From Escherichia coli (GTDB lineage Bacteria > Pseudomonadota > Gammaproteobacteria > Enterobacterales > Enterobacteriaceae): a stretch of 64,000 nt of DNA. This document shows, piece by piece, positions 1-60,240 of the stretch. Made by a program: the position numbers and the translations under genes. The notes beneath the pieces were generated by a model, which worked only from the letters and a program-made list of their open reading frames with translations, ran no database searches and was not told the origin of the DNA. Every line of letters begins with the position of its first letter. Position 1 is the first letter of the stretch. The stretch lies in the NCBI RefSeq assembly GCF_030384885.1, contig NZ_CP128613.1; one strand, given 5' to 3'.

Positions 1-256
1 CAATAACCCGCGTCATCCGTACACCCAGGCGCTACTCTCCGCAACGCCGCGCCTGAACCCGGACGATCGCCGCGAGCGCATTAAGCTCACCGGTGAACTG
101 CCAAGCCCGCTCAATCCACCGCCGGGCTGCGCGTTTAACGCCCGCTGTCGTCGGCGCTTCGGCCCCTGCACCCAGTTGCAGCCGCAGCTAAAAGACTACG
201 GCGGTCAACTGGTAGCTTGTTTTGCTGTTGATCAGGATGAAAATCCGCAGCGGTAA
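1..256 (+). CDS. dppF: Dipeptide ABC transporter ATP-binding protein DppF, C-terminal fragment (5' end outside window)
   Basis: Open frame from window edge ending at TAA 254-256; position convergent with yhjV matches known dpp-yhjV neighbourhood; C-terminal peptide consistent with oligopeptide ABC ATPase tail. Confidence 0.75.
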   Translation, partial: NNPRHPYTQALLSATPRLNPDDRRERIKLTGELPSPLNPPPGCAFNARCRRRFGPCTQLQPQLKDYGGQLVACFAVDQDENPQR

Positions 257-285
257 CTCACAAAACCGGGGCCATGCGCTCCGGT

Positions 286-1557
286 TTACTCAATCAGCTT
301 CAACAGTGGCGACAAGCATAACAAAATGCCGTACAGCAGAATCATCCAGGCTTTAAACCCGCGAAGTTTTTCCAGTTGTGAGACTTTTGAGATCAGGAAA
401 AACGGAATGAGGCACGACACAATGCCATATAACGGGCTTCCCAACTGAAAGAACACCAGCACCGATACACGAAACGAAACCCAAATCGTCAACGTAATGA
501 CGATAAAAGCGCAGATCGCCAGAGTCAGCATACGTGAGTTAATTTTCTGGGTATCAATAATTCGGCTTAACAGATTGAGAATAATGCCTTTAATGGCCTC
601 GTGGAAACCGAGATAAATGCCAAAGAATGCGGTCAGTACGGCAAAGATATTCAGCACCGTAGAGGTGATATGAATGATATGCCCAGGGATCACCTGCGCG
701 GCCAGTGCCAGTGCCGAGATATTTTGTTCAAAGGCAGAAACGGCTTCTTCGTGGCTAATTGAGAAGGTAAACGAAAAGGCAAAAAACAGGATCACCGCGA
801 TGAGCGTGACATAACTAATTCGGTGGGTGCGCAGCGCGAGCCGGGTTGCCAGTACTTTATCCGCTTCCCGTTTACGATAGGCAATATTCATTGGGTTAAG
901 TACCTGAATAAATACCGCAGAAAAGAAGCAAAAGGGAATGGTAAGCAGGACATCGCGGAAAAAGACGGAGGCTTGCGGGAAGGCGGTTATATTGGCGAAA
1001 TTCCAGTGCGGGATCATCGCAAAACCGAACACGACGATAATCCCTACTTTGACCACCACCATTGGCCCGGAAATCTTAAACAGTAATCGTTCACCACCAG
1101 ACGCAATTGCCACCAGTACGGCGAAAATGGCGACTTTATAAAGTAGAGATTGTGAAAGATCGGCATCGGTTAAACCGAAGGTTTTCAGGTACGAGGCGCT
1201 GTCGAAAACCACGGAGAGAGAGTAGATAAAAATCCCGTGGATAATCATCAAAAAGTAGATAACCCCGAGGAAAATTCCCCAGTTCTTCCCCAGGTAATGA
1301 CTGATAATATCGGTGTAGTCATTACAGGAATCGCTTTCAGAAAGGGTTTTTAAATAAATGTCCTGCACTACCCAGGTGGCAGGATAAGCAATGATCGCTG
1401 CGGTAATAAATACCCAAATTCCCTTCAAGCCAATTTGTACTGGCATCAGCACGGTTCCGGCACCAATCGCCATGCCTATGCATAATAAAACCCAGCCGAA
1501 GTCGTAGCGTGTAAACGGCATTTTCTGATCGTGTTTCGGTAGTGTGTTGTGCTGCAT
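286..1557 (-). CDS. yhjV: Inner-membrane transporter YhjV (HAAAP-family amino-acid permease-like), 423 aa
   Basis: ORF track 286..1620; start trimmed to internal ATG ([15 protein letters not shown]...) to give the 423-aa product; highly hydrophobic multi-TM sequence. Confidence 0.85.
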
Positions 1558-1915
1558 AAAGTCCTGTCCAGAAAGAAGTCGGCCTCGCAAAAATGAATAA
1601 ACCCAGTTTCTCTTGCGCAACAGGTGGAGAAGTCGAATACGCAGTATGTAAAAAATGAGGCAACAGATTCACTGGGGAGGTCGCGAGGAGGCGCAATTCT
1701 ACAAAATTGCGCATTTCACTACCAGTCTGGAGTCAGCCCGGATATGAACTGCAACTATTGCAAATAAAGAAATTAAGCTGGAAGGCATCACGCAATGAGG
1801 AAGATTGCCGGGTGCTGACGGTAAAAAGCAATCGTAAAAGCAGCGGCAAGCCGGAAAGGTTCCGGTGAGGCGCAATGTTGCGAGGGCTTAATCCCTGGTG
1901 GCATTGGTTGCTGGA

Positions 1916-1984
1916 GAGAGAAAACCCCCGCACGTTGCAGATATTCACCTGACAACATCACGGGGGCTAATCTTGAACCTAGAC
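1916..1984 (-). ncRNA. rdlD: Rdl-type antisense sRNA (antitoxin of Ldr), copy 1; ends approximate
   Basis: Minus-strand sequence 'GTCTAGGTTCAAGATTAGCCCCCGTGATGTTGTCAGGTG...CTGCAACGTGCGGGGGTTTTCTCTC' matches recalled Rdl RNA; lies antisense in ldr 5' leader. Confidence 0.5.
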
Positions 1985-2032
1985 CACTCAAGAATAGCCG
2001 CGAAACGTTGTCATTACAACACAGGCGGCTAT

Positions 2033-2140
2033 ATGACGCTCGCAGAACTGGGCATGGCCTTCTGGCATGATTTAGCGGCTCCGGTCATTGCTGGCATTCT
2101 TGCCAGCATGATCGTGAACTGGCTGAATAAGCGGAAGTAA
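2033..2140 (+). CDS. ldrD: Type I toxin Ldr (35 aa, MTLAELGMAFWHDLAAPVIAGILASMIVNWLNKRK), copy 1
   Basis: 35-codon ORF at C-terminus of track ORF 1898..2140; sequence matches Ldr family small hydrophobic toxin; followed by hairpin+T-run. Confidence 0.8.
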   Translation: MTLAELGMAFWHDLAAPVIAGILASMIVNWLNKRK

Positions 2141-2190
2141 CGTGTCAGACGGGCGTCAGGCTGCCGTAATGGCAATTTGCGCCCGGACCA

Positions 2191-2222
2191 GGCCGCAGGG
2201 ATAAAACTCTGCGGCCTTTTTC
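2191..2222 (+). terminator. Rho-independent terminator of ldr copy 1
   Basis: GC stem ggccgcag / ctgcggcc followed by TTTTT. Confidence 0.6.
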
Positions 2223-2396
2223 GTAAGAAAAATGCAACGGTTGCAAGCGGATAATATTCTGCGGAATGCGCAGCACAGAGTGAAGAAGTGATGGATTCCG
2301 GAACAGAAAAACAGTCGTAGAATCAGCGGCAAGCCGGAAGGGTTCCGGTGAGGCGCAATGTTGCGGGGGCTTAATCCCTGGTGGCATTGGTTGCTG

Positions 2397-2465
2397 GAGA
2401 GAGAAAACCCCCGCACGTTGCAGGTATGCACCTGACAACATCACGGGGGCTAATCTTGAACCCAA
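2397..2465 (-). ncRNA. rdlD: Rdl-type antisense sRNA, copy 2; ends approximate
   Basis: Second copy of the Rdl-like sequence (GCATACCTGCAACGTGCGGGGGTTTTCTCTC on minus strand). Confidence 0.5.
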
Positions 2466-2515
2466 ACAACTCAAGAATAGCCGCGAAACGTTGTCATTAC
2501 AACAGAGGCGGCTAT

Positions 2516-2623
2516 ATGACGCTCGCAGAACTGGGCATGGCCTTCTGGCATGATTTAGCGGCTCCGGTCATTGCTGGCATTCTTGCCAGTCTGATCGTGA
2601 ACTCGCTGAATAAGCGGAAGTAA
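2516..2623 (+). CDS. ldrD: Type I toxin Ldr (35 aa), copy 2 (differs at 2 residues from copy 1)
   Basis: MTLAELGMAFWHDLAAPVIAGILASLIVNSLNKRK at C-terminus of track ORF 2381..2623. Confidence 0.8.
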   Translation: MTLAELGMAFWHDLAAPVIAGILASLIVNSLNKRK

Positions 2624-2673
2624 CGTGTCATGCGGGCGTCAGGCTGCCGTAATGGCAATTTGCGCCCGGATCA

Positions 2674-2705
2674 GGCCGCAGGGGTGAAACTCTGCGGCCT
2701 TTTTC
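2674..2705 (+). terminator. Rho-independent terminator of ldr copy 2 (possibly bidirectional with bcsG end)
   Basis: ggccgcag...ctgcggcc hairpin followed by T-run, 5 nt from bcsG stop. Confidence 0.55.
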
Positions 2706-2709
2706 GTTC

Positions 2710-4389
2710 TTATTGCGGGTAAGGCACCCAGTCGCCGCCGTTCAGGCGAACGTACGGTTTATCCTGGTATTGAATAACTACTGCATTTGAGTTCTCGGAG
2801 ACCGGTGCTGTTTGTGGCAACCCACTGGTGAGTTTTTTCCAGTCAACATTGTCTTCGGTGAAAATCTTACCATCAAGAACGCGAACCACCAGATCGGAGA
2901 TAGCCAGGAAGCTGCTCGGTTGGTTGATGACAATCGGTGCCCCCTGATGTGGTGCCTTCATGCCGAAGAATTTCACCCCAACGGGGACGTCTGTGATAGA
3001 CGGGCTAGGGATATCACGTAGGCCAGATACCTGCATTCTGTCGCCCTTCAGCGCGCCACCGTGTTCCGGCACCACTACCACCATCACTTTACGACCCGAT
3101 TTCTCCAGTTCAGTAAAGAAGGCGTCCAGCTCATCAAAGAATTTCTGCGCTCGCGCTTTGTAATCCGCTGTTTTGCTGACGCCCGGATAATGGTTGCCGT
3201 CATGCAGTGGAAGCGTGTTGTAGAACGTGGCACTACGGCTGTTTTTATCTTTTTCGGTAACGTCCAGCCAGCGGTTAAGCACGGCGGTATCGTCATAAAC
3301 CGGCGAACCATCAAAGCCCAACAAAATAACCGGCAGATTTGTTTGATCCATCAATTCGGTCTGCATGCCGCCATTTTCGCGAACTTCTTTCAAAAAACCG
3401 CCGAACTGGCCGTTATGTCCCATCATCAGGTGCTGGGTAAAGCCCAGTTTCGACAGGTTATCAAACAGATAGCAGTCGTTATTTGCCGGTTGATACAGAT
3501 TAGTGTGCGAAGTCTGCCCGCAGCTGGCGCGCAGTAAACGGATCGCTGCCGGGCCACTGTAGGAGGTGGCGGAGTTAAAGTTCTTGAACTCAATATCGAA
3601 ATGCGACCACAGCGGATGCGACATCAACCCGGCGGCTTCAATATCCGACCAGGAAAGCGAACAGATATTAATCACCAGTAGTTCAAATGGCTGAGCATCA
3701 GCGGGCAGCGAAGACGGGAAGGTCGATTTACGTTTCGCCTCCGCGTTATAGAAATTATTCAGCCAGGCGTTAAGGTTCGCCGTTGTTGGCGGTGCAGTTT
3801 GTGCGGGCATATCACCCACTACCGGTGCGCCACCCGTCGCCGCAACGGTTGCCGCTGCGTTACCACCCGTCGTTGTTACAGTGGTCGTCGGTTGACCGGC
3901 AGGCCACAAGGAGAAACTTGGTCCCGCCAGGGTAAGTACGTTCAGCCATAGCAGAATGGCAACCACAAAAACGGTAATGCGAATCCATTGTGATAGGAAT
4001 AACCAGGCCACTAATAAAACAAAAATGGCCCCAATCATCTGCCAGTTAATAAAGCGTGTGACAAGGTCGATTAAATAATCGGTACTGAACCCCGCCACCT
4101 GCGAACCCTGGCTCATTATGCTTTCCGGGCCAGGCAACCAGGTGTCATGCCAGAACAAAGCAAAGCCGATCGGCAGGGCAATCCAGTGGCGTAAGCGATG
4201 CAGGCTGTAGCGCGGAATGGGCATCAGCAGAAACGCGGCAAACACCAGATTGAGGAGCGGATGGAAGTTAAGATATCCCGCCCACAACAGGCCGAACTTA
4301 ACCAGAAAATAGAAGTTCCAGCCGGAAAGGCCGCGCCAGTATTGCCAGAGGGAAGAAGGCATGGCGGTATTTTGCGTAAATTGAGTCAT
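2710..4389 (-). CDS. bcsG: Cellulose phosphoethanolamine transferase BcsG (559 aa)
   Basis: ORF track; N-terminal TM helices plus alkaline-phosphatase-like periplasmic domain; size and position (bcsEFG operon) match. Confidence 0.9.
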
Positions 4390-4577
4390 TTTTTGGTTGC
4401 CCTGGCTTTTTCCGTGCGGCGTAACGTCCCGGCCGGTTTAACATAACGAGGTTTAGCAAAGAACAAACGTAAGGTGTCGCGAATGCGTCGCAAAGAGTGC
4501 CGCGCCAGATAGCCCAGCGGGAAAAATATCAGTGCGCAAACGACAATAATTTCAATGATATCGCTGATGGTCATCAT
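4386..4577 (-). CDS. bcsF: Cellulose biosynthesis small membrane protein BcsF (63 aa)
   Basis: 63-aa ORF overlapping bcsG start by 4 nt and bcsE stop by 4 nt (translational coupling); single TM helix. Confidence 0.85.
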
Positions 4578-6145
4578 GATGAGCGCTCCACAGTATCATC
4601 TAACAGTCGCATTGGTTCTGGTATTCTTCGCCAGTGGCGACCATCGTGCTCGGCATTGATGACCGGTTTAGAACTTTGCGTTAAAGGCAGCGGCATGCCC
4701 CATTGTTCTGGAGCAAGCAGGCGCATCTGCACCAGCTCGGCACTGATTTGATCATCTTCAAACCAGACCATACGGTTTGAGAAAATGTCGCCAGTCGGCA
4801 ATGGGAAAATATGATTCAACGCGGTATCCAGATCGTTAATCCGACAGAATGAGAGAAACAGCACCAGCCGATTACCGCCAATGGTCATGATATCGCCGGT
4901 ACGGTTAGGGCGACACAGCGTCAGGGCTTGCTCAACGCGGATACCCGGTACCGGACGTAGGGCAACCAGAACGCCTTTACCATGTGCAGGCAAGAGAGGG
5001 TTATTCATCATGTTGTTAACGGCATTACAGAACACATCCCACTTCTGGAAACCACGTAGTTTGAGCGGCTGGGTCATTGACAGCAAGGTAGTGATATCTT
5101 CCGGCACATAGCGACTAAACTTCTGCCCTTGCACGCTTTCGATCATCGTCAGACAGCGGGAGAGTGGCGCATTCCACGGGATAACCATATTTGCACCGCA
5201 GGCCAATAACAAACGTTCATCGGTGGCGCGCAAGCTTGCGGTATTTTCCCGTACGAGGATTTTCATCGCACTACCGCGCTGGCGACGCAGAGTATGAATG
5301 CTGCGGGCCAGTGGCTCGATTTGCGCATTTTGCTGTAAAGAAAAGACCACCGTTGCCGCCTGAGCGGTACGGGCTTCATTGAACAGAATTTCGTTATTGT
5401 TGAACAGTTGCCAGTGTTCCGATAGCGGCGGCGCACCTTCCAGTACAGCAACATTACTCAGAATGCGTTTTTCGTCGCTGCGTGGTTGGATCTCCGCCTC
5501 TTCGCTTTGAACTAATGTCCAGATACCTTTTTGTTGCTGAACGCTAAGCTGCTGACGGGCGCTGACCCCTTTTTCGTTGCACCAGAAGGCAATATCCAGC
5601 AAATGTTGGTCGCCCTGAAAACGCAAACTGGCAAGACCAAAAAGTGAACGGTATTCCTCAAGCAACAATGAAAATTGTTTATCGTTATTATTTCCGGGAT
5701 TAATTACCAAAAGCGAACAATGGTTTAACCTGCTCCATTTATTCATTTTATCCAACCATGAGCGAAGCCGCTCGGCAGGAATGTTTTGCCATGCGTTATT
5801 TGCGCAAACAAGAATAAAAAGGTAATTATTGGGAACAATAGAACACTGCAAATCACGGGCCAAATAGTATAGACCTTTTTCATGATTTAGCATTGAAAAT
5901 AATTTTATTTTTTCCGGCCCTTGAGAATCATCTAATTGAAAGATTTTCGCCGGATCGCTGTCCATGCTAATGACCGCGACGTGTGCGGTTTCAGCCTGGG
6001 ATGCAATTGTTTGATTCGCCAGACTGATAGCATCTTCATGGCGATCGACGTTAAACCACCAGACGCCGCCTGCTGGCATATGTCGCAGCTCATCCCATAA
6101 TGATGAGATACCGATAGAGAATACAGGGTCCACAATGTCCCTCAT
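4574..6145 (-). CDS. bcsE: c-di-GMP-binding cellulose biosynthesis protein BcsE (523 aa)
   Basis: ORF track 523 aa; first gene of bcsEFG, divergent from bcsR. Confidence 0.9.
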
Positions 6146-6416
6146 GTCACCATTTTGTCTGATTATCAGTTTACTAGCGAAAGCTAAGAAATAAACCTAC
6201 CATTGAAATTAAAACTTATCAGATTTAGCATGTGAATCAATTTAGCAGGTCACAAGACGTGTGATTTTAGTCTTTTCGTTTTTAACTTTTTTTGTTGCGT
6301 AACGGAAAGTCAAAAAGTGAGCAAATTCCCGTCTCGCCGTAAACAATAAACCGGCGAAATGCTCACGGTTAGAATTGTCTCATGAACGGTGCGGTTATTT
6401 CATAGGGATCAAGCAA

Positions 6417-6605
6417 ATGAATAACAATGAACCAGATACTCTGCCTGATCCCGCGATAGGCTATATCTTCCAGAATGATATTTTGGCGTTAAAGCAGGCG
6501 TTTTCACTGCCTGATATTGATTATGCCGATATTTCCCAACGCGAACAGTTGGCCGCGGCATTAAAACGCTGGCCGTTGCTGGCAGAGTTTGCGCAACAAA
6601 AGTAG
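6417..6605 (+). CDS. bcsR: Cellulose biosynthesis protein BcsR (62 aa)
   Basis: ATG at 6417 inside track ORF 6375..6605 (MNNNEPDTLPDP...); immediately upstream of bcsQ. Confidence 0.8.
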   Translation: MNNNEPDTLPDPAIGYIFQNDILALKQAFSLPDIDYADISQREQLAAALKRWPLLAEFAQQK

Positions 6606-6616
6606 GGGATTGGTGA

Positions 6617-7369
6617 ATGGCCGTACTGGGATTGCAGGGGGTGCGGGGAGGCGTGGGAACAACAACCATCACTGCCGCATTAGCCTGGTCATTACAAATG
6701 TTGGGAGAAGATGTCCTGGTGGTCGATGCCTGCCCGGACAACTTGTTGCGCCTGTCATTTAACGTTGATTTTACCCACCGTCAGGGCTGGGCCAGAGCCA
6801 TGCTGGACGGTCAGGACTGGCGTGACGCCGGGTTGCGCTATACCTCGCAACTCGATTTGCTGCCTTTTGGTCAGTTATCCATTGAAGAACAAGAAAATCC
6901 ACAGCACTGGCAAACCCGGCTGAGCGATATTTGCTCCGGCTTACAGCAACTAAAAGCCAGCGGGCGTTACCAGTGGATTTTAATCGACTTACCGCGTGAT
7001 GCCTCGCAGATAACCCACCAGCTGCTGAGTTTGTGCGATCACTCGCTGGCAATCGTCAATGTGGATGCCAACTGCCATATCCGGCTGCATCAGCAGGCGC
7101 TGCCGGATGGCGCGCATATTTTGATTAATGACTTCCGCATTGGCAGTCAGGTTCAGGACGATATTTACCAGCTTTGGTTGCAAAGCCAGCGCCGATTACT
7201 GCCAATGCTCATTCATCGTGATGAAGCGATGGCTCAATGCCTGGCGGCTAAGCAACCAGTCGGTGAATACCGCAGTGATGCGCTGGCGGCTGAAGAGATA
7301 CTGACGCTGGCTAACTGGTGCCTGTTGAACTATTCCGGGCTGAAAACGCCAGTCGGGAGTGCATCATGA
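6617..7369 (+). CDS. bcsQ: Cellulose synthase operon protein BcsQ (ParA/MinD-like ATPase), intact 250 aa
   Basis: Full-length ORF; codon 6 is TTG (Leu), not the TAG stop found in K-12. Confidence 0.9.
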   Translation: MAVLGLQGVRGGVGTTTITAALAWSLQMLGEDVLVVDACPDNLLRLSFNVDFTHRQGWARAMLDGQDWRDAGLRYTSQLDLLPFGQLSIEEQENPQHWQTRLSDICSGLQQLKASGRYQWILIDLPRDASQITHQLLSLCDHSLAIVNVDANCHIRLHQQALPDGAHILINDFRIGSQVQDDIYQLWLQSQRRLLPMLIHRDEAMAQCLAAKQPVGEYRSDALAAEEILTLANWCLLNYSGLKTPVGSAS

Positions 7370-9984
7370 GTATCCTGACCCGGTGGTTGCTTATCCCGCC
7401 GGTCAACGCGCGGCTTATCGGGCGTTATCGCGATTATCGTCGTCACGGCGCGTCGGCTTTCAGCGCGACGCTCGGCTGTTTTTGGTTGATCCTGGCCTGG
7501 ATTTTTATTCCGCTGGAGCACCCGCGCTGGCAGCGTATTCGCGCAGAACATAAAAACCTGTATCCGCATATCAACGCCTCGCGTCCGCGTCCGCTGGACC
7601 CGGTCCGTTATCTCATTCAAACATGCTGGTTACTGATCGGTACATCGCGCAAAGAAACGCCGAAACCGCGCAGGCGGACATTTTCAGGTCTGCAGAATAT
7701 TCGTGGACGTTACCATCAATGGATGAACGAGCTGCCTGAGCGCGTTAGCCATAAAACACAGCATCTCGATGAGAAAAAAGAACTCGGCCATTTGAGCGCC
7801 GGGGCGCGGCGGTTGATCCTCGGTATCATCGTCACCTTCTCGCTGATTCTGGCGTTAATCTGCGTTACCCAGCCGTTTAACCCGCTGGCGCAGTTTATCT
7901 TCCTGATGCTGCTGTGGGGTGTAGCGCTGATCGTACGGCGGATGCCGGGGCGCTTCTCGGCGCTAATGTTGATTGTGCTGTCGCTGACCGTTTCTTGCCG
8001 TTATATCTGGTGGCGCTACACCTCTACGCTGAACTGGGACGATCCGGTCAGTCTGGTGTGCGGGCTTATACTGCTGTTCGCTGAAACGTACGCGTGGATT
8101 GTGCTGGTGCTCGGCTACTTCCAGGTGGTATGGCCGCTGAATCGTCAGCCAGTACCGTTGCCGAAAGATATGTCGCTGTGGCCGTCGGTAGATATCTTTG
8201 TCCCGACTTACAACGAAGATCTCAACGTGGTGAAAAATACGATTTACGCCTCGCTGGGTATCGACTGGCCGAAAGACAAGCTGAACATCTGGATCCTCGA
8301 TGACGGCGGCAGGGAAGAGTTTCGCCAGTTTGCACAAAACGTGGGGGTGAAATATATCGCCCGTACCACTCATGAACATGCGAAAGCAGGCAACATCAAC
8401 AATGCGCTGAAATATGCCAAAGGCGAGTTCGTGTCGATTTTCGACTGCGACCACGTGCCGACGCGCTCATTCCTGCAAATGACCATGGGCTGGTTCCTGA
8501 AAGAAAAACAGTTGGCGATGATGCAGACGCCGCACCACTTCTTCTCACCGGATCCGTTTGAACGTAACTTGGGGCGTTTTCGTAAAACGCCAAACGAAGG
8601 CACGCTGTTTTATGGTCTGGTGCAGGACGGCAATGATATGTGGGATGCCACTTTCTTCTGCGGTTCCTGTGCGGTGATTCGTCGTAAGCCGCTGGATGAG
8701 ATTGGCGGCATTGCTGTCGAAACGGTAACCGAAGATGCGCATACTTCTCTGCGTTTGCACCGTCGTGGCTACACCTCTGCATATATGCGTATTCCGCAGG
8801 CGGCGGGGCTGGCGACCGAAAGTCTGTCGGCGCATATCGGTCAGCGTATTCGCTGGGCGCGCGGGATGGTGCAAATCTTCCGTCTCGATAACCCGCTCAC
8901 CGGTAAAGGGCTGAAGTTTGCTCAGCGGCTGTGCTACGTCAACGCCATGTTCCATTTCTTGTCGGGCATTCCACGACTGATCTTTCTGACTGCGCCGCTG
9001 GCGTTCCTGCTGCTGCATGCCTACATCATCTACGCGCCTGCGTTAATGATCGCTCTGTTTGTGCTGCCGCATATGATTCACGCCAGCCTGACCAACTCGA
9101 AGATTCAGGGTAAATATCGCCACTCTTTCTGGAGCGAAATCTACGAAACGGTACTGGCGTGGTATATCGCACCACCGACGCTGGTGGCGCTGATTAACCC
9201 GCACAAAGGCAAATTTAACGTCACCGCCAAAGGTGGACTGGTGGAAGAAGAGTACGTCGACTGGGTGATCTCACGGCCCTACATTTTCCTGGTATTGCTC
9301 AACCTGGTCGGTATTGCGGTCGGTATCTGGCGTTACTTCTACGGCCCGCCAACCGAGATGCTCACTGTCATCGTCAGTATGGTGTGGGTGTTCTACAACC
9401 TGATTATTCTCGGTGGTGCGGTAGCGGTATCGGTAGAAAGCAAACAGGTTCGCCGATCGCACCGCGTGGAGATGACGATGCCCGCGGCAATTGCCCGCGA
9501 AGATGGTCACCTCTTCTCGTGTACCGTTCAGGATTTCTCCGACGGTGGTTTGGGGATCAAGATCAACGGTCAGGCACAGATTCTGGAAGGGCAGAAAGTG
9601 AATCTGTTGCTTAAACGCGGTCAGCAAGAATACGTCTTCCCGGCCCAGGTGGCGCGCGTGATGGGTAATGAAGTTGGGCTGAAATTAATGCCGCTCACCA
9701 CCCAGCAACATATCGATTTTGTGCAGTGTACGTTTGCCCGTGCGGATACATGGGCGCTCTGGCAGGACAGCTATCCGGAAGATAAGCCGCTGGAAAGTCT
9801 GCTGGATATTCTGAAGCTCGGCTTCCGTGGCTACCGCCATCTGGCGGAGTTTGCGCCTTCTTCGGTGAAGGGCATATTCCGTGTGCTGACTTCTCTGGTT
9901 TCCTGGGTTGTATCGTTTATTCCGCGCCGCCCGGCGCGGAGCGAAACGGCACAACCATCGGATCAGGCTTTGGCTCAACAATGA
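7366..9984 (+). CDS. bcsA: Cellulose synthase catalytic subunit BcsA (872 aa, GT2 + PilZ)
   Basis: ATG at 7366 (MSILTRWLL...) overlapping bcsQ stop (ATGA); GT2 motifs (DDG, DCD, QTPH, QRIRW) and C-terminal PilZ. Confidence 0.95.
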   Translation: MSILTRWLLIPPVNARLIGRYRDYRRHGASAFSATLGCFWLILAWIFIPLEHPRWQRIRAEHKNLYPHINASRPRPLDPVRYLIQTCWLLIGTSRKETPKPRRRTFSGLQNIRGRYHQWMNELPERVSHKTQHLDEKKELGHLSAGARRLILGIIVTFSLILALICVTQPFNPLAQFIFLMLLWGVALIVRRMPGRFSALMLIVLSLTVSCRYIWWRYTSTLNWDDPVSLVCGLILLFAETYAWIVLVLGYFQVVWPLNRQPVPLPKDMSLWPSVDIFVPTYNEDLNVVKNTIYASLGIDWPKDKLNIWILDDGGREEFRQFAQNVGVKYIARTTHEHAKAGNINNALKYAKGEFVSIFDCDHVPTRSFLQMTMGWFLKEKQLAMMQTPHHFFSPDPFERNLGRFRKTPNEGTLFYGLVQDGNDMWDATFFCGSCAVIRRKPLDEIGGIAVETVTEDAHTSLRLHRRGYTSAYMRIPQAAGLATESLSAHIGQRIRWARGMVQIFRLDNPLTGKGLKFAQRLCYVNAMFHFLSGIPRLIFLTAPLAFLLLHAYIIYAPALMIALFVLPHMIHASLTNSKIQGKYRHSFWSEIYETVLAWYIAPPTLVALINPHKGKFNVTAKGGLVEEEYVDWVISRPYIFLVLLNLVGIAVGIWRYFYGPPTEMLTVIVSMVWVFYNLIILGGAVAVSVESKQVRRSHRVEMTMPAAIAREDGHLFSCTVQDFSDGGLGIKINGQAQILEGQKVNLLLKRGQQEYVFPAQVARVMGNEVGLKLMPLTTQQHIDFVQCTFARADTWALWQDSYPEDKPLESLLDILKLGFRGYRHLAEFAPSSVKGIFRVLTSLVSWVVSFIPRRPARSETAQPSDQALAQQ

Positions 9985-43101: not shown

Positions 43102-43116
43102 TTTTTACCCAGACAT

Positions 43117-43222
43117 AAAAAAAACCCGGCATAGGGGACCGGGAAGAGGATAGTCTGCCGTCTCCAGACTAATAAACCGTTATAACACTCCCTGTTGGCA
43201 CGGGAAACTTTGTGCTCTCAGT
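43117..43222 (-). ncRNA. gadY: GadY small RNA (antisense to gadX 3' end)
   Basis: Minus-strand sequence ACTGAGAGCACAAAGTTTCCCGTGCCAACAGGGAGTGTTATAACGG...CCTATGCCGGGTTTTTTTT matches recalled GadY, ending in a hairpin and T-run. Confidence 0.8.
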
Positions 43223-43468
43223 AAGTTAAATATAACTTTTACTGGAGATAAGATCAGCCATTTTTTTATAAACATAAGCTATGCGCTGTGTGAAAATATA
43301 TTCTTCTTGCATTTTCTTATTATCAATTAACTGTTATGTCAAACTACTTTTTGGATAACTTTTGGTCCTACCAAATATGGCAGTTTATGCACGAAGAAGC
43401 GGTCTGGCATCATTTCATTAGTATACTGAAATTGAAATAATCGCAGTAATGAAATATAAGGGATAGTC

Positions 43469-48854: not shown

Positions 48855-49192
48855 TTTAGTCCCTGAAAATTCTTGAGATATAACGGTTCTTTAAATTGCG
48901 CGCGAGGAGAGGTATGAGGGATTTACAGACCAGCGGCATAGTGGGGTTGTCAGCCAGTAAGATGGGATGCAAGCACAGTGATCGACATGGTGAGGTCAAC
49001 GACAAAAAAAATGTTGCCGTTCTGCCAACAGTTCCTGCCAGCATTCGGGCAACGAAGGGTTCTACTGGTGGATACACATACCAGGGGAATAAAGTCGTTT
49101 TCGCCTCTCCTTTAGTCATCACCGGGGATAATGAAATCAGCATCTGCATCCCTCTTCATGCCTGCCATCATTTTCAGTTAATTATGTCCTGA

Positions 49193-59758: not shown

Positions 59759-59911
59759 ATTGCGCTCCTGATTGTTGCAGGTAGTGTCTCTCTTCGAAGC
59801 GGATAAGTCAAAAACATATATGTTTTAACGAATGTGTAAGTGCAGAGGAAGGTAATAGGTGTGAATTAAGCGTTGGGTGTTCATTTGAAAGGAAGTCTGA
59901 ATCAGGATGTA

Positions 59912-60005
59912 AAAAAACCGACTTTGCGTCGGTTTTTTACTCTTCAGCCAGAGTTGGTGGCTCTGGCTGGAGTGAGAATGCCCACATCTAACGGTTCAAT
60001 ACTAT
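59912..60005 (-). ncRNA. agrB: AgrB-like sRNA (antisense regulator of dinQ); ends approximate
   Basis: Repeat unit 'ggctctggctggagtgaga-tgcccacatctaac' whose minus-strand transcript is complementary to the dinQ leader copy at ~60395-60430; ends in hairpin ccgac-gcaaa-gtcgg plus T-run. Confidence 0.45.
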
Positions 60006-60147
60006 TAGCCAGTGGCTAACATTGCAAGCGTTAGCGATTTCTTCAGCTGGCGAAGGGACAGTTTGCTATACATGGTGGTGAAAGAGGATTGATATACTTT
60101 CATCGGGTCGCTGCCGTACCAAGCCTTGTCCGAATCCGGACGTAAAA

Positions 60148-60240
60148 AAACCGACTTCGCGTCGGTTTTTTTACTCTTCAGCCCAGAATTGGTGGCTCTG
60201 GCTGGAGTGAGATAGCCATCATCTAACACATCAATGCTAA
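60148..60240 (-). ncRNA. agrA: AgrA-like sRNA (antisense regulator of dinQ); ends approximate
   Basis: Second copy of the repeat plus the same terminator hairpin. Confidence 0.45.

Follow-up and report, generated by a model that had tools for sequence, protein, structure and literature searches.

The window, that is, the whole 64,000-nucleotide stretch of DNA analysed here, carries two head-to-tail LDR-D (ldrD/rdlD) units at positions 1824-2707, repeated with a period of 483 nt between yhjV and bcsG. Ldr/rdl is a textbook type I toxin-antitoxin family, in which a small toxin is paired with an antisense RNA. The features of the locus, in window coordinates, are the following.

286-1557, minus strand: yhjV (aromatic amino acid transporter family), the left flank, from the open reading frame (ORF) list and the RefSeq annotation of NZ_CP027579.1
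1824-2306, plus strand: LDR-D unit 1, the full 483-nt period including the 81-nt inter-unit spacer at 2226-2306, from the direct repeat and the alignment
1835-1840, plus strand: predicted ldr-1 -10 hexamer, TAAAAG, from the promoter-region alignment of 49 units
1847-2221, plus strand: putative ldr-1 mRNA with long 5' UTR, toxin ORF and terminator, its 5' end predicted, from the predicted -10 and the terminator
1875-1952, plus strand: 25-codon leader ORF of ldr-1, MLRGLNPWWHWLLERENPRTLQIFT, ending within the Rdl-complementary region, from the ORF list
1919-1984, minus strand: rdl-1, a 66-nt antisense antitoxin RNA complementary to the ldr-1 5' UTR (Rfam RF01813, 85.5 bits, full length)
1991-2019, minus strand: predicted rdl-1 promoter, read by eye, with -35 TTGTAA (2019 to 2014), a 17-nt spacer, -10 TATTCT (1996 to 1991) and start at 1984
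2033-2140, plus strand: ldr-1 toxin ORF, 35 aa, MTLAELGMAFWHDLAAPVIAGILASMIVNWLNKRK, WP_001295224.1, from the ORF list (Pfam Ldr_toxin PF13940, 93.1 bits)
2190-2221, plus strand: ldr-1 intrinsic terminator, an 11-pair GC-rich stem (hairpin 2190-2217) followed by a T run
2307-2707, plus strand: LDR-D unit 2, the last unit, abutting the bcsG stop codon, from the direct repeat and the alignment
2318-2323, plus strand: predicted ldr-2 -10 hexamer, TAGAAT, from the promoter-region alignment
2402-2467, minus strand: rdl-2 antisense antitoxin RNA (Rfam RF01813, 90.4 bits, full length)
2516-2623, plus strand: ldr-2 toxin ORF, 35 aa, MTLAELGMAFWHDLAAPVIAGILASLIVNSLNKRK, WP_000170736.1, from the ORF list (Pfam Ldr_toxin PF13940, 83.3 bits)
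2673-2704, plus strand: ldr-2 intrinsic terminator, a hairpin (2673-2700) followed by a T run
2710-4389, minus strand: bcsG (cellulose biosynthesis), the right flank, from the ORF list and RefSeq annotation

A repeat search returned one direct repeat in two copies, 300 nt at 95% identity (1824-2123 and 2307-2606), whose starts lie 483 nt apart. In the pairwise alignment, homology begins at about 1824/2307 and continues through the terminator tail, which ends at 2224/2707. Past this end, copy 1 is followed by the inter-unit spacer and copy 2 by the 3' end of bcsG. A repeat of about 400 nt at about 95% identity is far beyond chance. Tandem Repeats Finder reported no repeat at the array, presumably because fewer than two full periods are present. 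A preliminary description of this DNA had proposed two direct repeats of about 483 bp at 1838-2708, each with a complete ldr/rdl module, and M/L and W/S differences between the two peptides. The repeat search and the alignment confirm the repeats and leave the coordinates essentially right, with the repeat beginning about 14 nt earlier; the ORFs, Rfam and Pfam matches and hairpins support a toxin ORF, an antisense RNA and a terminator in each unit, and the ORF translations reproduce both residue differences. The RefSeq record NZ_CP027579.1 (E. coli 2013C-4282), which is 100% identical here and whose locus coordinates equal those of the window plus one, likewise annotates two Ldr-family toxins. 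No further LDR-like sequence was found within the 64-kb window. A weak similarity of 20 nt at 1678-1697 (repeat family D2) was considered as a degenerate LDR remnant and rejected, as it yielded chance-level matches only.

The Pfam matches to PF13940 are full-length for both peptides, that of copy 2 being 10 bits lower, and LdrD in PDB 5LBJ was matched with E = 1e-16. The NCBIfam HMMs gave no match for any of three 35-aa peptides, though RefSeq still names both window toxins as Ldr family. The assignment to LDR-D is based on the yhjV/bcsG flanks together with the LdrD-type peptide (...AELGMAFWHDLAAPVIAGILAS...NKRK), in which 32-34 of the 35 residues are as in K-12 LdrD. Compared with K-12 LdrD, copy 1 carries F3L only and copy 2 carries F3L, M26L, and W30S, so that ldr-2, which contains ...ASLIVNSLNKRK, departs from ldr-1 by M26L and W30S. 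The superfamily has as its signature a conserved Trp located after the transmembrane helix and before the charged C-terminus (PMC2887945; PMC7472228). This residue is present in copy 1 (...IVNWLNKRK), as Trp30 between the helix and the charged C-terminus, and absent from copy 2 (...IVNSLNKRK), where TGG has become TCG at window position 2604. Trp occupies position 30 or 31 in every one of the approximately 45 Ldr peptides of other genera. The loss of Trp in copy 2 weakens the case for a typical active toxin, but not the case for homology.

Both Rdl RNAs score well over the gathering score of 50 set for Rfam rdlD (RF01813) and share the same predicted fold, with energies of -29.1 kcal/mol for rdl-1 and -31.7 kcal/mol for rdl-2 (z = -5.0 each). 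The rdl genes lie 49-114 nt upstream of each toxin ATG and do not overlap the start codon. Relative to rdl-1, rdl-2 differs at positions 3 and 5 in the 5' tail, at position 40 in the apical loop, and at position 44, where a stem G.U pair becomes G-C. The computed energies of the Rdl/target duplexes are -135 and -138 kcal/mol for the cognate pairs and -121 and -123 kcal/mol for the non-cognate pairs. The four positions at which the Rdl RNAs differ are in the 5' tail, in the loop, and in a single stem pair, so specificity would be set by kinetics and not by thermodynamics. In the zor/orz and sib/ibs systems, experiments have shown that cognate RNAs are told apart from non-cognate ones. The predicted rdl-1 promoter agrees with the consensus at 8 of 12 positions, under the scan threshold of 9 of 12.

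A consensus sigma-70 scan found no promoter in the array, and the promoters were instead read by eye or from conservation. Of 49 units, some of them from other Escherichia species, 48 have TA(A/G)AAT as the predicted -10 of the toxin mRNA; the sole deviant is window copy 1, in which the last base has changed from T to G. K-12 has TAGAAT as its predicted -10, compared with TAAAAG in window copy 1. The hexamer is taken as a probable -10 because it is conserved and lies some 375 nt before the terminator. The exact 91-nt context of TAAAAG was found in this strain only, the related strain RMDEC465 being one mismatch away and having the same G at 1840. A long 5' UTR has been described for ldr mRNA (PMC4147584). 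Within it, the 25-codon leader ORF is intact in 38 of 40 units from 16 strains. As a candidate for the proposed ldrX, this ORF, at -158, was not an unambiguous fit and stops before the toxin translation initiation region. A long in-frame upstream extension was no clearer a candidate, and a stop interrupts it in four of the 40 units.

According to the established family model, each unit would be transcribed into a stable mRNA, about 375 nt in length, that encodes a 35-aa membrane-active toxin behind a long 5' UTR, while the opposite strand of the UTR would yield an unstable 66-nt Rdl, which by pairing with this UTR prevents translation of the toxin (reviewed in PMC4147584, PMC8309996, PMC8167048). 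The block may work via a leader ORF, a hypothesis unconfirmed in the literature. The proposed logic comes from hok/sok/mok of plasmid R1, where the antisense RNA binds the 5' UTR at a distance from the toxin ribosome-binding site and a coupled leader ORF, mok, is the counterpart of the proposed ldrX; however, the ldrX coupling model is unconfirmed and the toxin family differs. For LdrD/RdlD of K-12, it is reported that toxin overexpression kills or arrests cells and that the cognate Rdl represses toxin translation (PMC4147584, PMC8309996). Similar toxicity and Rdl repression may be expected in the strain studied here. Copy number at the locus, from one to four units and occasionally more, very probably arises and shifts through gene conversion and unequal homologous recombination between units of 483 nt.

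LDR-D of K-12 (Kawano et al. 2002, as cited in PMC4147584 and PMC8309996) occupies the same yhjV-bcsG locus with the same architecture of long 5' UTR, 66-nt Rdl, 35-aa toxin, and terminator, but has one unit in place of two and keeps Trp30, which window copy 2 lacks. In the B strains, BL21(DE3) included, a triple array of the same unit-variant family lies at the same site with the same 483-nt period (PMC5435950); it has three units as opposed to two, in another order and combination of variants, and its bcsG-adjacent unit is a K-12-type LdrD. Across approximately 5,420 complete E. coli genomes, one unit was counted in 2,093, two in 534, three in 1,811, four in 827, and other numbers in 156. 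These counts were obtained by titration with flank-only queries on RefSeq complete genomes, a phylogenetically unbalanced sample. An even-step sample of 54 genomes (23, 5, 17, and 9 genomes with one to four units) agrees with the full titration, as does the mean of 2.26 D-type ORFs per genome. Two or more units are thus found in about 61% of complete E. coli genomes, and the K-12-like single copy in 39%. K-12 has one unit at the locus, whereas B/T7Express and M1 have three. The three ldrD/rdlD pairs between bcsG and yhjV of BL21(DE3) were published in 2017 (PMC5435950), and tandem, lineage-specific ldr duplications were described in 2010 (PMC2887945). The preliminary description was right that K-12 has a single ldrD-rdlD copy (locus comparison; PMC5435950), and the contrast stands, as the K-12 reference shows one unit and not the same two. 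Its suggestion of a noteworthy expansion in this strain is not supported, given that about 61% of complete genomes have at least two units and 534 have exactly two. Its expectation that tandem copies can recombine unequally is realised in the single unit of RMDEC465.

That single unit is an exact chimera of copies 1 and 2 with no other differences, having the copy 1 state at 5 of 5 informative sites up to 1857 and the copy 2 state at 15 of 15 from 1883, and it shows contraction of the array by unequal crossover. The 40 units of 16 strains are mosaic, with 70 variable columns. The four-unit strain MFDS1019527 has flanks 99.5% identical to those of the window, and its units 1 and 4 resemble window units 1 and 2, respectively. 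A single-crossover origin of the window array from this strain was considered and rejected, because the pattern of informative sites was not clean.

The tandem array between yhjV and bcsG is very probably a pair of autonomous, diverged LDR-D type I toxin-antitoxin units, forming one allele of a widespread copy-number polymorphism. An alternative that would modify rather than replace this explanation, and that we consider unlikely without being negligible, is that, within a genuine array, the toxin parts are degenerating or becoming attenuated in this lineage and the antitoxin RNAs are retained. Pointing in this direction are the TAAAAG of copy 1 alone against a hexamer otherwise invariant among the 49 units, the near restriction of this variant to the present strain and RMDEC465, the W30S change of copy 2 at a site where the Ldr peptides of other genera retain Trp30/31, the Pfam score of copy 2, and the normal fold and high scores of both rdl genes. 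Given the T-to-G change of copy 1 and the Trp loss of copy 2, either toxin, or both, may be poorly expressed or attenuated. However, the -10 identity of the hexamer is itself predicted, and in Fst of pAD1, the toxic prototype, Val replaces the signature Trp, hence Trp is not essential for toxicity (PMC7472228). In addition, the intact, exact W30S allele of ldr-2 occurs in 296 records, suggesting maintenance over degeneration, and the ORFs, Shine-Dalgarno regions, and terminators are intact in both units. The two rdl genes of the window are intact, and the RMDEC465 crossover joins TAAAAG and W30S in the sole remaining unit. It seems improbable that the lineage is shifting from two toxin-antitoxin pairs to attenuated toxins with full antitoxin output; if true, this would be a natural case in which mutations in a promoter and in a signature residue disarm a chromosomal type I toxin step by step before recombination contracts the array.

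A recent, strain-specific duplication of a single K-12-like ldrD/rdlD unit would fit the one unit of K-12 against the two of the window, but it is effectively refuted by the divergence of the copies and is very unlikely. The window units differ at 17 of 387 positions (about 4.4%), compared with 1-2% for orthologous flanks between strains. Over these 387 nt, unit 2 is identical to the last unit (unit 2) of the unrelated two-unit strain S1-CHI-01-A, and unit 1 is closest to the first units of other strains. The 17 differences and the identity with the S1-CHI-01-A unit indicate old paralogous units and no fresh duplication. Against a recent event also stand the 534 genomes with two units and the approximately 2,790 with three or more, and the presence of two units at this locus in other Escherichia species. 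Hardly any credence can be given to an assembly artefact, whether by false expansion of one unit or by collapse of a longer array. Repeats of about 0.5 kb in tandem can be mis-assembled, but false expansion would not create 17 distinguishing positions, and collapse would as a rule be expected to leave behind a unit that is chimeric or ambiguous. The record is of a circular chromosome that has been finished, and the same two-unit spacing recurs in 534 independent complete assemblies, among them S1-CHI-01-A with its identical second unit.

As two autonomous, diverged units, the array is an already known phenomenon of little discovery value, for multi-copy arrays at this exact locus have been published (PMC5435950), and tandem duplication is a recognised hallmark of ldr/rdl that has even served as a criterion when new type I systems were sought (PMC2887945). 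The variation from one to four units at yhjV-bcsG is common and already published, which makes the finding ordinary. Three by-products may be of use. The copy-number distribution for approximately 5,400 complete genomes places the single-copy state of K-12 in a minority (39%). The RMDEC465 unit shows cleanly and at base resolution how unequal crossover contracts an array. The two candidate attenuating variants are potential natural mutants for studies of LdrD expression and toxicity, the determinants of which have been named as a subject for mutagenesis (PMC8309996).

Beyond E. coli, an ldr unit adjoins bcsG and/or yhjV in other Escherichia species, Citrobacter, Salmonella, Kluyvera, and Pseudocitrobacter, and Kluyvera has independent arrays of two or three units. 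Tandem organization is also seen in LDR-A/B/C of K-12 (chaA-kdsA), an array of the same family with 35-aa toxins sharing the FWHDLAAP core and with Rdl; it differs in locus, which does not lie within the 64-kb window, and in subgroup, the LdrA-type ending in ...SWWRNRK and having about 57% identity to LdrD (PMC8309996). The ibs/sib, zorO-orzO/zorP-orzP, and dinQ/agrAB systems likewise combine small hydrophobic toxins, cis-antisense RNAs, intergenic duplication, and strain-variable copy number (PMC2887945), but their toxin and RNA families are unrelated to Ldr/Rdl. Ldr matches in 'plasmid' records were found at 26 places; the one examined is a chromosomal chaA-ldr-kdsA segment within a 195-kb plasmid record, unrelated to the locus described here.

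At 1824-2707, the window carries two head-to-tail units with a period of 483 nt between yhjV and bcsG. The 483-nt repeat, the ORFs, the rdlD matches and the terminators agree with the preliminary description, which had claimed a tandem ldr/rdl duplication at this site. A repeat search of the window aligned 1824-2123 with 2307-2606 as a direct repeat (95% identity over 300 nt), and pairwise alignment showed the two copies to be homologous up to the last bases of the terminator tail at 2224/2707, starting at about 1824/2307; past the tail, copy 1 is followed by an 81-nt spacer and copy 2 by the 3' end of bcsG. RefSeq locus coordinates equal those of the window plus one (annotation 2034-2141 is window 2033-2140). 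The features are as follows, with an Rfam RF01813 gathering score of 50.

286-1557, minus strand: yhjV, flanking gene (ORF list and RefSeq annotation)
1919-1984, minus strand, opposite to ldr: rdlD antisense RNA of copy 1 (RF01813, full length, 85.5 bits)
2033-2140, plus strand: ldr-1 ORF, 35 codons (ORF list)
2190-2217, plus strand: GC-rich hairpin followed by a T run, copy 1
2402-2467, minus strand, opposite to ldr: rdlD antisense RNA of copy 2 (RF01813, full length, 90.4 bits)
2516-2623, plus strand: ldr-2 ORF, 35 codons (ORF list)
2673-2700, plus strand: GC-rich hairpin followed by a T run, copy 2
2710-4389, minus strand: bcsG, flanking gene (ORF list and RefSeq annotation)

The array site is the K-12 LDR-D locus, and the array belongs to a well-known type I toxin-antitoxin family for which multi-copy arrays at this locus have already been published. 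The encoded peptides, MTLAELGMAFWHDLAAPVIAGILASMIVNWLNKRK (copy 1) and MTLAELGMAFWHDLAAPVIAGILASLIVNSLNKRK (copy 2), differ at M/L and W/S, as previously described. Both match Pfam Ldr_toxin (PF13940) over the full length (93.1 and 83.3 bits) and the solved LdrD structure 5LBJ (E = 1e-16). It is reported that overproduction of LdrD is toxic, quickly arresting growth and condensing the nucleoid, and that RdlD, which lies opposite the long 5' UTR of the ldrD mRNA and not opposite the ribosome-binding site, blocks LdrD translation; a proposed hok/mok-like coupling via a leader ORF, 'ldrX', is still unconfirmed (PMC4147584, PMC8309996, PMC8167048). In K-12, the ldrD/rdlD overlap yields RNase III-dependent dsRNA (PMC7373196). 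In the window, a 25-codon ORF beginning MLRGL(N/Y)PWWHWLLERENPRTLQ is present in the ldr 5' UTR of both copies (1875-1952 and 2358-2435, plus strand), and ends inside the Rdl-complementary region. Among 40 units taken from 16 strains, 38 keep this ORF intact.

The rdlD matches sit 49-114 nt upstream of the ldr ATG in each copy, and the two Rdl RNAs fold alike and stably (-29.1 and -31.7 kcal/mol for copies 1 and 2; z = -5.0 against shuffles). They differ at positions 3 and 5 in the 5' tail, 40 in the loop and 44, where G.U becomes G-C. Duplexes are computed to have energies of -135 and -138 kcal/mol with the cognate partner and of -121 and -123 kcal/mol with the non-cognate one, so that cross-pairing of an Rdl with the non-cognate ldr is predicted to be thermodynamically possible.

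The unit number at the locus was counted with queries made of the unique flanks only. Two aligned pieces are joined if they are no farther apart than 500 bases plus half of the query length; the joining distance therefore scales with the query, whose length caps the unit number that still gives a single joined match. The 300-nt query (ceiling one unit) joined 2,093 genomes, the 1,000-nt query (up to two) 2,627, the 2,000-nt query (up to three) 4,438, and the 3,000-nt query (up to four) 5,265 of 5,421.

Table. Units at the LDR-D locus in RefSeq complete E. coli genomes, an unbalanced sample in which the percentages are descriptive only
One unit: 2,093 genomes (38.6%)
Two units: 534 genomes (9.9%)
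Three units: 1,811 genomes (33.4%)
Four units: 827 genomes (15.3%)
Other (five or more, or disrupted locus): 156 genomes (2.9%)

Two independent checks agree with this distribution. The spans of 54 clean rows sampled in even steps are quantised at 6,017, 6,500, 6,983 and 7,466 bp (23, 5, 17 and 9 genomes, respectively), and the D-type ldr ORF occurs 12,221 times in 5,403 genomes (mean 2.26, maximum 6). K-12 derivatives have one unit, whereas three each are present in strain M1 and in T7Express, which is of the B lineage. One ldrD/rdlD pair in K-12 and three in BL21(DE3) have been reported between bcsG and yhjV (PMC5435950). The single K-12 copy given in the preliminary description is corroborated; the novelty that it implies for the expansion in this strain does not hold, since two units are the state of some 10% of the complete E. 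coli genomes and multi-copy loci are the majority and published. Tandem duplication of ldr-rdl loci, with lineage-specific duplications and losses, has been reported (PMC2887945). The record NZ_CP026085.1, labelled 'DH5alpha', has a 4.83-Mb chromosome with a three-unit span (6,983 bp), although K-12 derivatives have one unit, and its strain label looks doubtful. In some strains, among them 131 (NZ_CP093011.1) and CMZE065, three genes of a HipA-type type II toxin-antitoxin system are inserted between dppF and yhjV (strain 131 locus 490-2116), adjoining a three-unit ldr array; the strain 131 bcsG (locus 5039-6718) has an internal stop and a pseudogene annotation.

The units belong to a mosaic family: 70 of 389 columns are variable among the 40 units, and variant blocks recur in differing combinations, a pattern as expected if recombination or gene conversion had operated. 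Comparison of units 1 and 2 of the window gives 17 differences in 387 positions. Unit 2 has exactly the sequence of the last unit in S1-CHI-01-A, an unrelated strain with two units, the nearest relatives of unit 1 in the set are the first units of E20 (6 differences) and CFSAN018748 (8 differences), and two-unit arrays of other strains show different allele combinations. From these comparisons, the window array is composed of old, diverged units and is not a fresh duplication. A false expansion in assembly, which would give identical copies, is made very unlikely by the divergence. The array is 100% identical to that of E. coli 2013C-4282 (human stool isolate, USA), a finished chromosome with two Ldr-family toxins annotated in its RefSeq record.

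RMDEC465, which has the DppF and BcsG protein alleles of the window strain, carries a single ldr unit (NZ_CM177019.1, fetched locus 2530-2930). Over its 401 nt, this unit agrees with copy 1 at 5/5 informative sites as far as 1857 and with copy 2 at 15/15 from 1883 onwards, and it differs nowhere else. It is exactly what one unequal crossover within 1858-1882/2341-2365 that deletes one period yields, and it gives the clearest evidence for the mechanism, a base-resolved contraction of a window-like array. Because a single chimera cannot re-create two diverged units by duplication, the two-unit state is ancestral to the one-unit state of RMDEC465. The earlier expectation that tandem copies can undergo unequal recombination finds its support in this chimera. 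In MFDS1019527, a four-unit relative with 99.5% identical flanks, the first and last units are similar to those of the window; the unit comparison found no clean single-crossover derivation of the window array from it.

The copy 2 toxin carries W30S, and its Pfam score is 10 bits below that of copy 1. The Ldr/Fst signature is a Trp located after the transmembrane helix and before the charged tail (PMC2887945), and it is found at position 30 or 31 in all of about 45 Ldr peptides from other genera. The toxic Fst prototype has Val at this position, so the signature Trp is not essential (PMC7472228). Since 296 records contain the exact W30S allele, in most cases in the unit that adjoins bcsG, W30S is probably a maintained variant and not a private lesion. 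In copy 1, the hexamer directly 5' of the conserved CAGCGGCAAGCC is TAAAAG (1835-1840, G at 1840), against TA(A/G)AAT in 48/48 other units from E. coli and two other Escherichia species. It is the predicted -10 of the toxin promoter because its position suits an mRNA that has a length of about 375 nt and stops at the terminator; a consensus promoter scan found no promoter. The exact 91-nt hexamer context occurs only in the window strain, with RMDEC465 one mismatch away and sharing the G at 1840. That the toxin halves are being attenuated in the window lineage while the antitoxins are kept seems improbable, and would be of modest interest if true.

A single scan for the motif that encodes FWHDLAAP, run on species-representative genomes, placed an ldr ORF beside bcsG and/or yhjV in members of several genera; the presence of the module here is therefore older than those genera. 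One unit was found in E. albertii, E. whittamii, each of several Citrobacter species, Salmonella enterica subsp. arizonae and diarizonae, and Pseudocitrobacter; two in Escherichia sp. E1V33 and another E. coli representative; and two or three in Kluyvera. Outside Escherichia, the module is mostly single-copy and tandem arrays have arisen independently. The Kluyvera arrays are independent, and array formation at the syntenic site recurs outside Escherichia. This distribution is consistent with the conclusion of lineage-specific duplication, not horizontal transfer (PMC2887945). The Kluyvera units, spaced about 500-530 nt apart, adjoin bcsG in tandem, three in K. sichuanensis (fetched locus 6743-7820) and two in K. 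ascorbata (fetched locus 37-680).

Plasmid p23AR0151A (NZ_CP195449.1, 195 kb; fetched locus 1-8363) contains the chromosomal segment ychO-chaCBA-ldr-kdsA-sirB-prmC-prfA. This is the LDR-A/B/C locus, here with only one Ldr gene, and its presence reflects either an F-prime-like capture or mis-assignment. A 503-bp contig (0.66x coverage) of Bacillus sp. EB106-08-02-XG196 encodes an E. coli-type LdrD (MPFAELGMAFWHDLAAPVIAGILASMIVNWLNKRK) and is almost certainly E. coli contamination.

Elsewhere in the window, two tandem Rfam AgrB-family antisense RNAs (59909-59991 and 60142-60226, minus strand; 90 and 86.6 bits) are agrA/agrB, the antitoxin RNAs that belong to the dinQ type I toxin system, and give the window a second type I antitoxin in tandem repeat. 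The sRNAs GadY (43112-43225, minus strand, 150 bits) and ES205 (49004-49075, minus strand, 105 bits) are also present, and the window therefore reaches the acid-fitness-island region.
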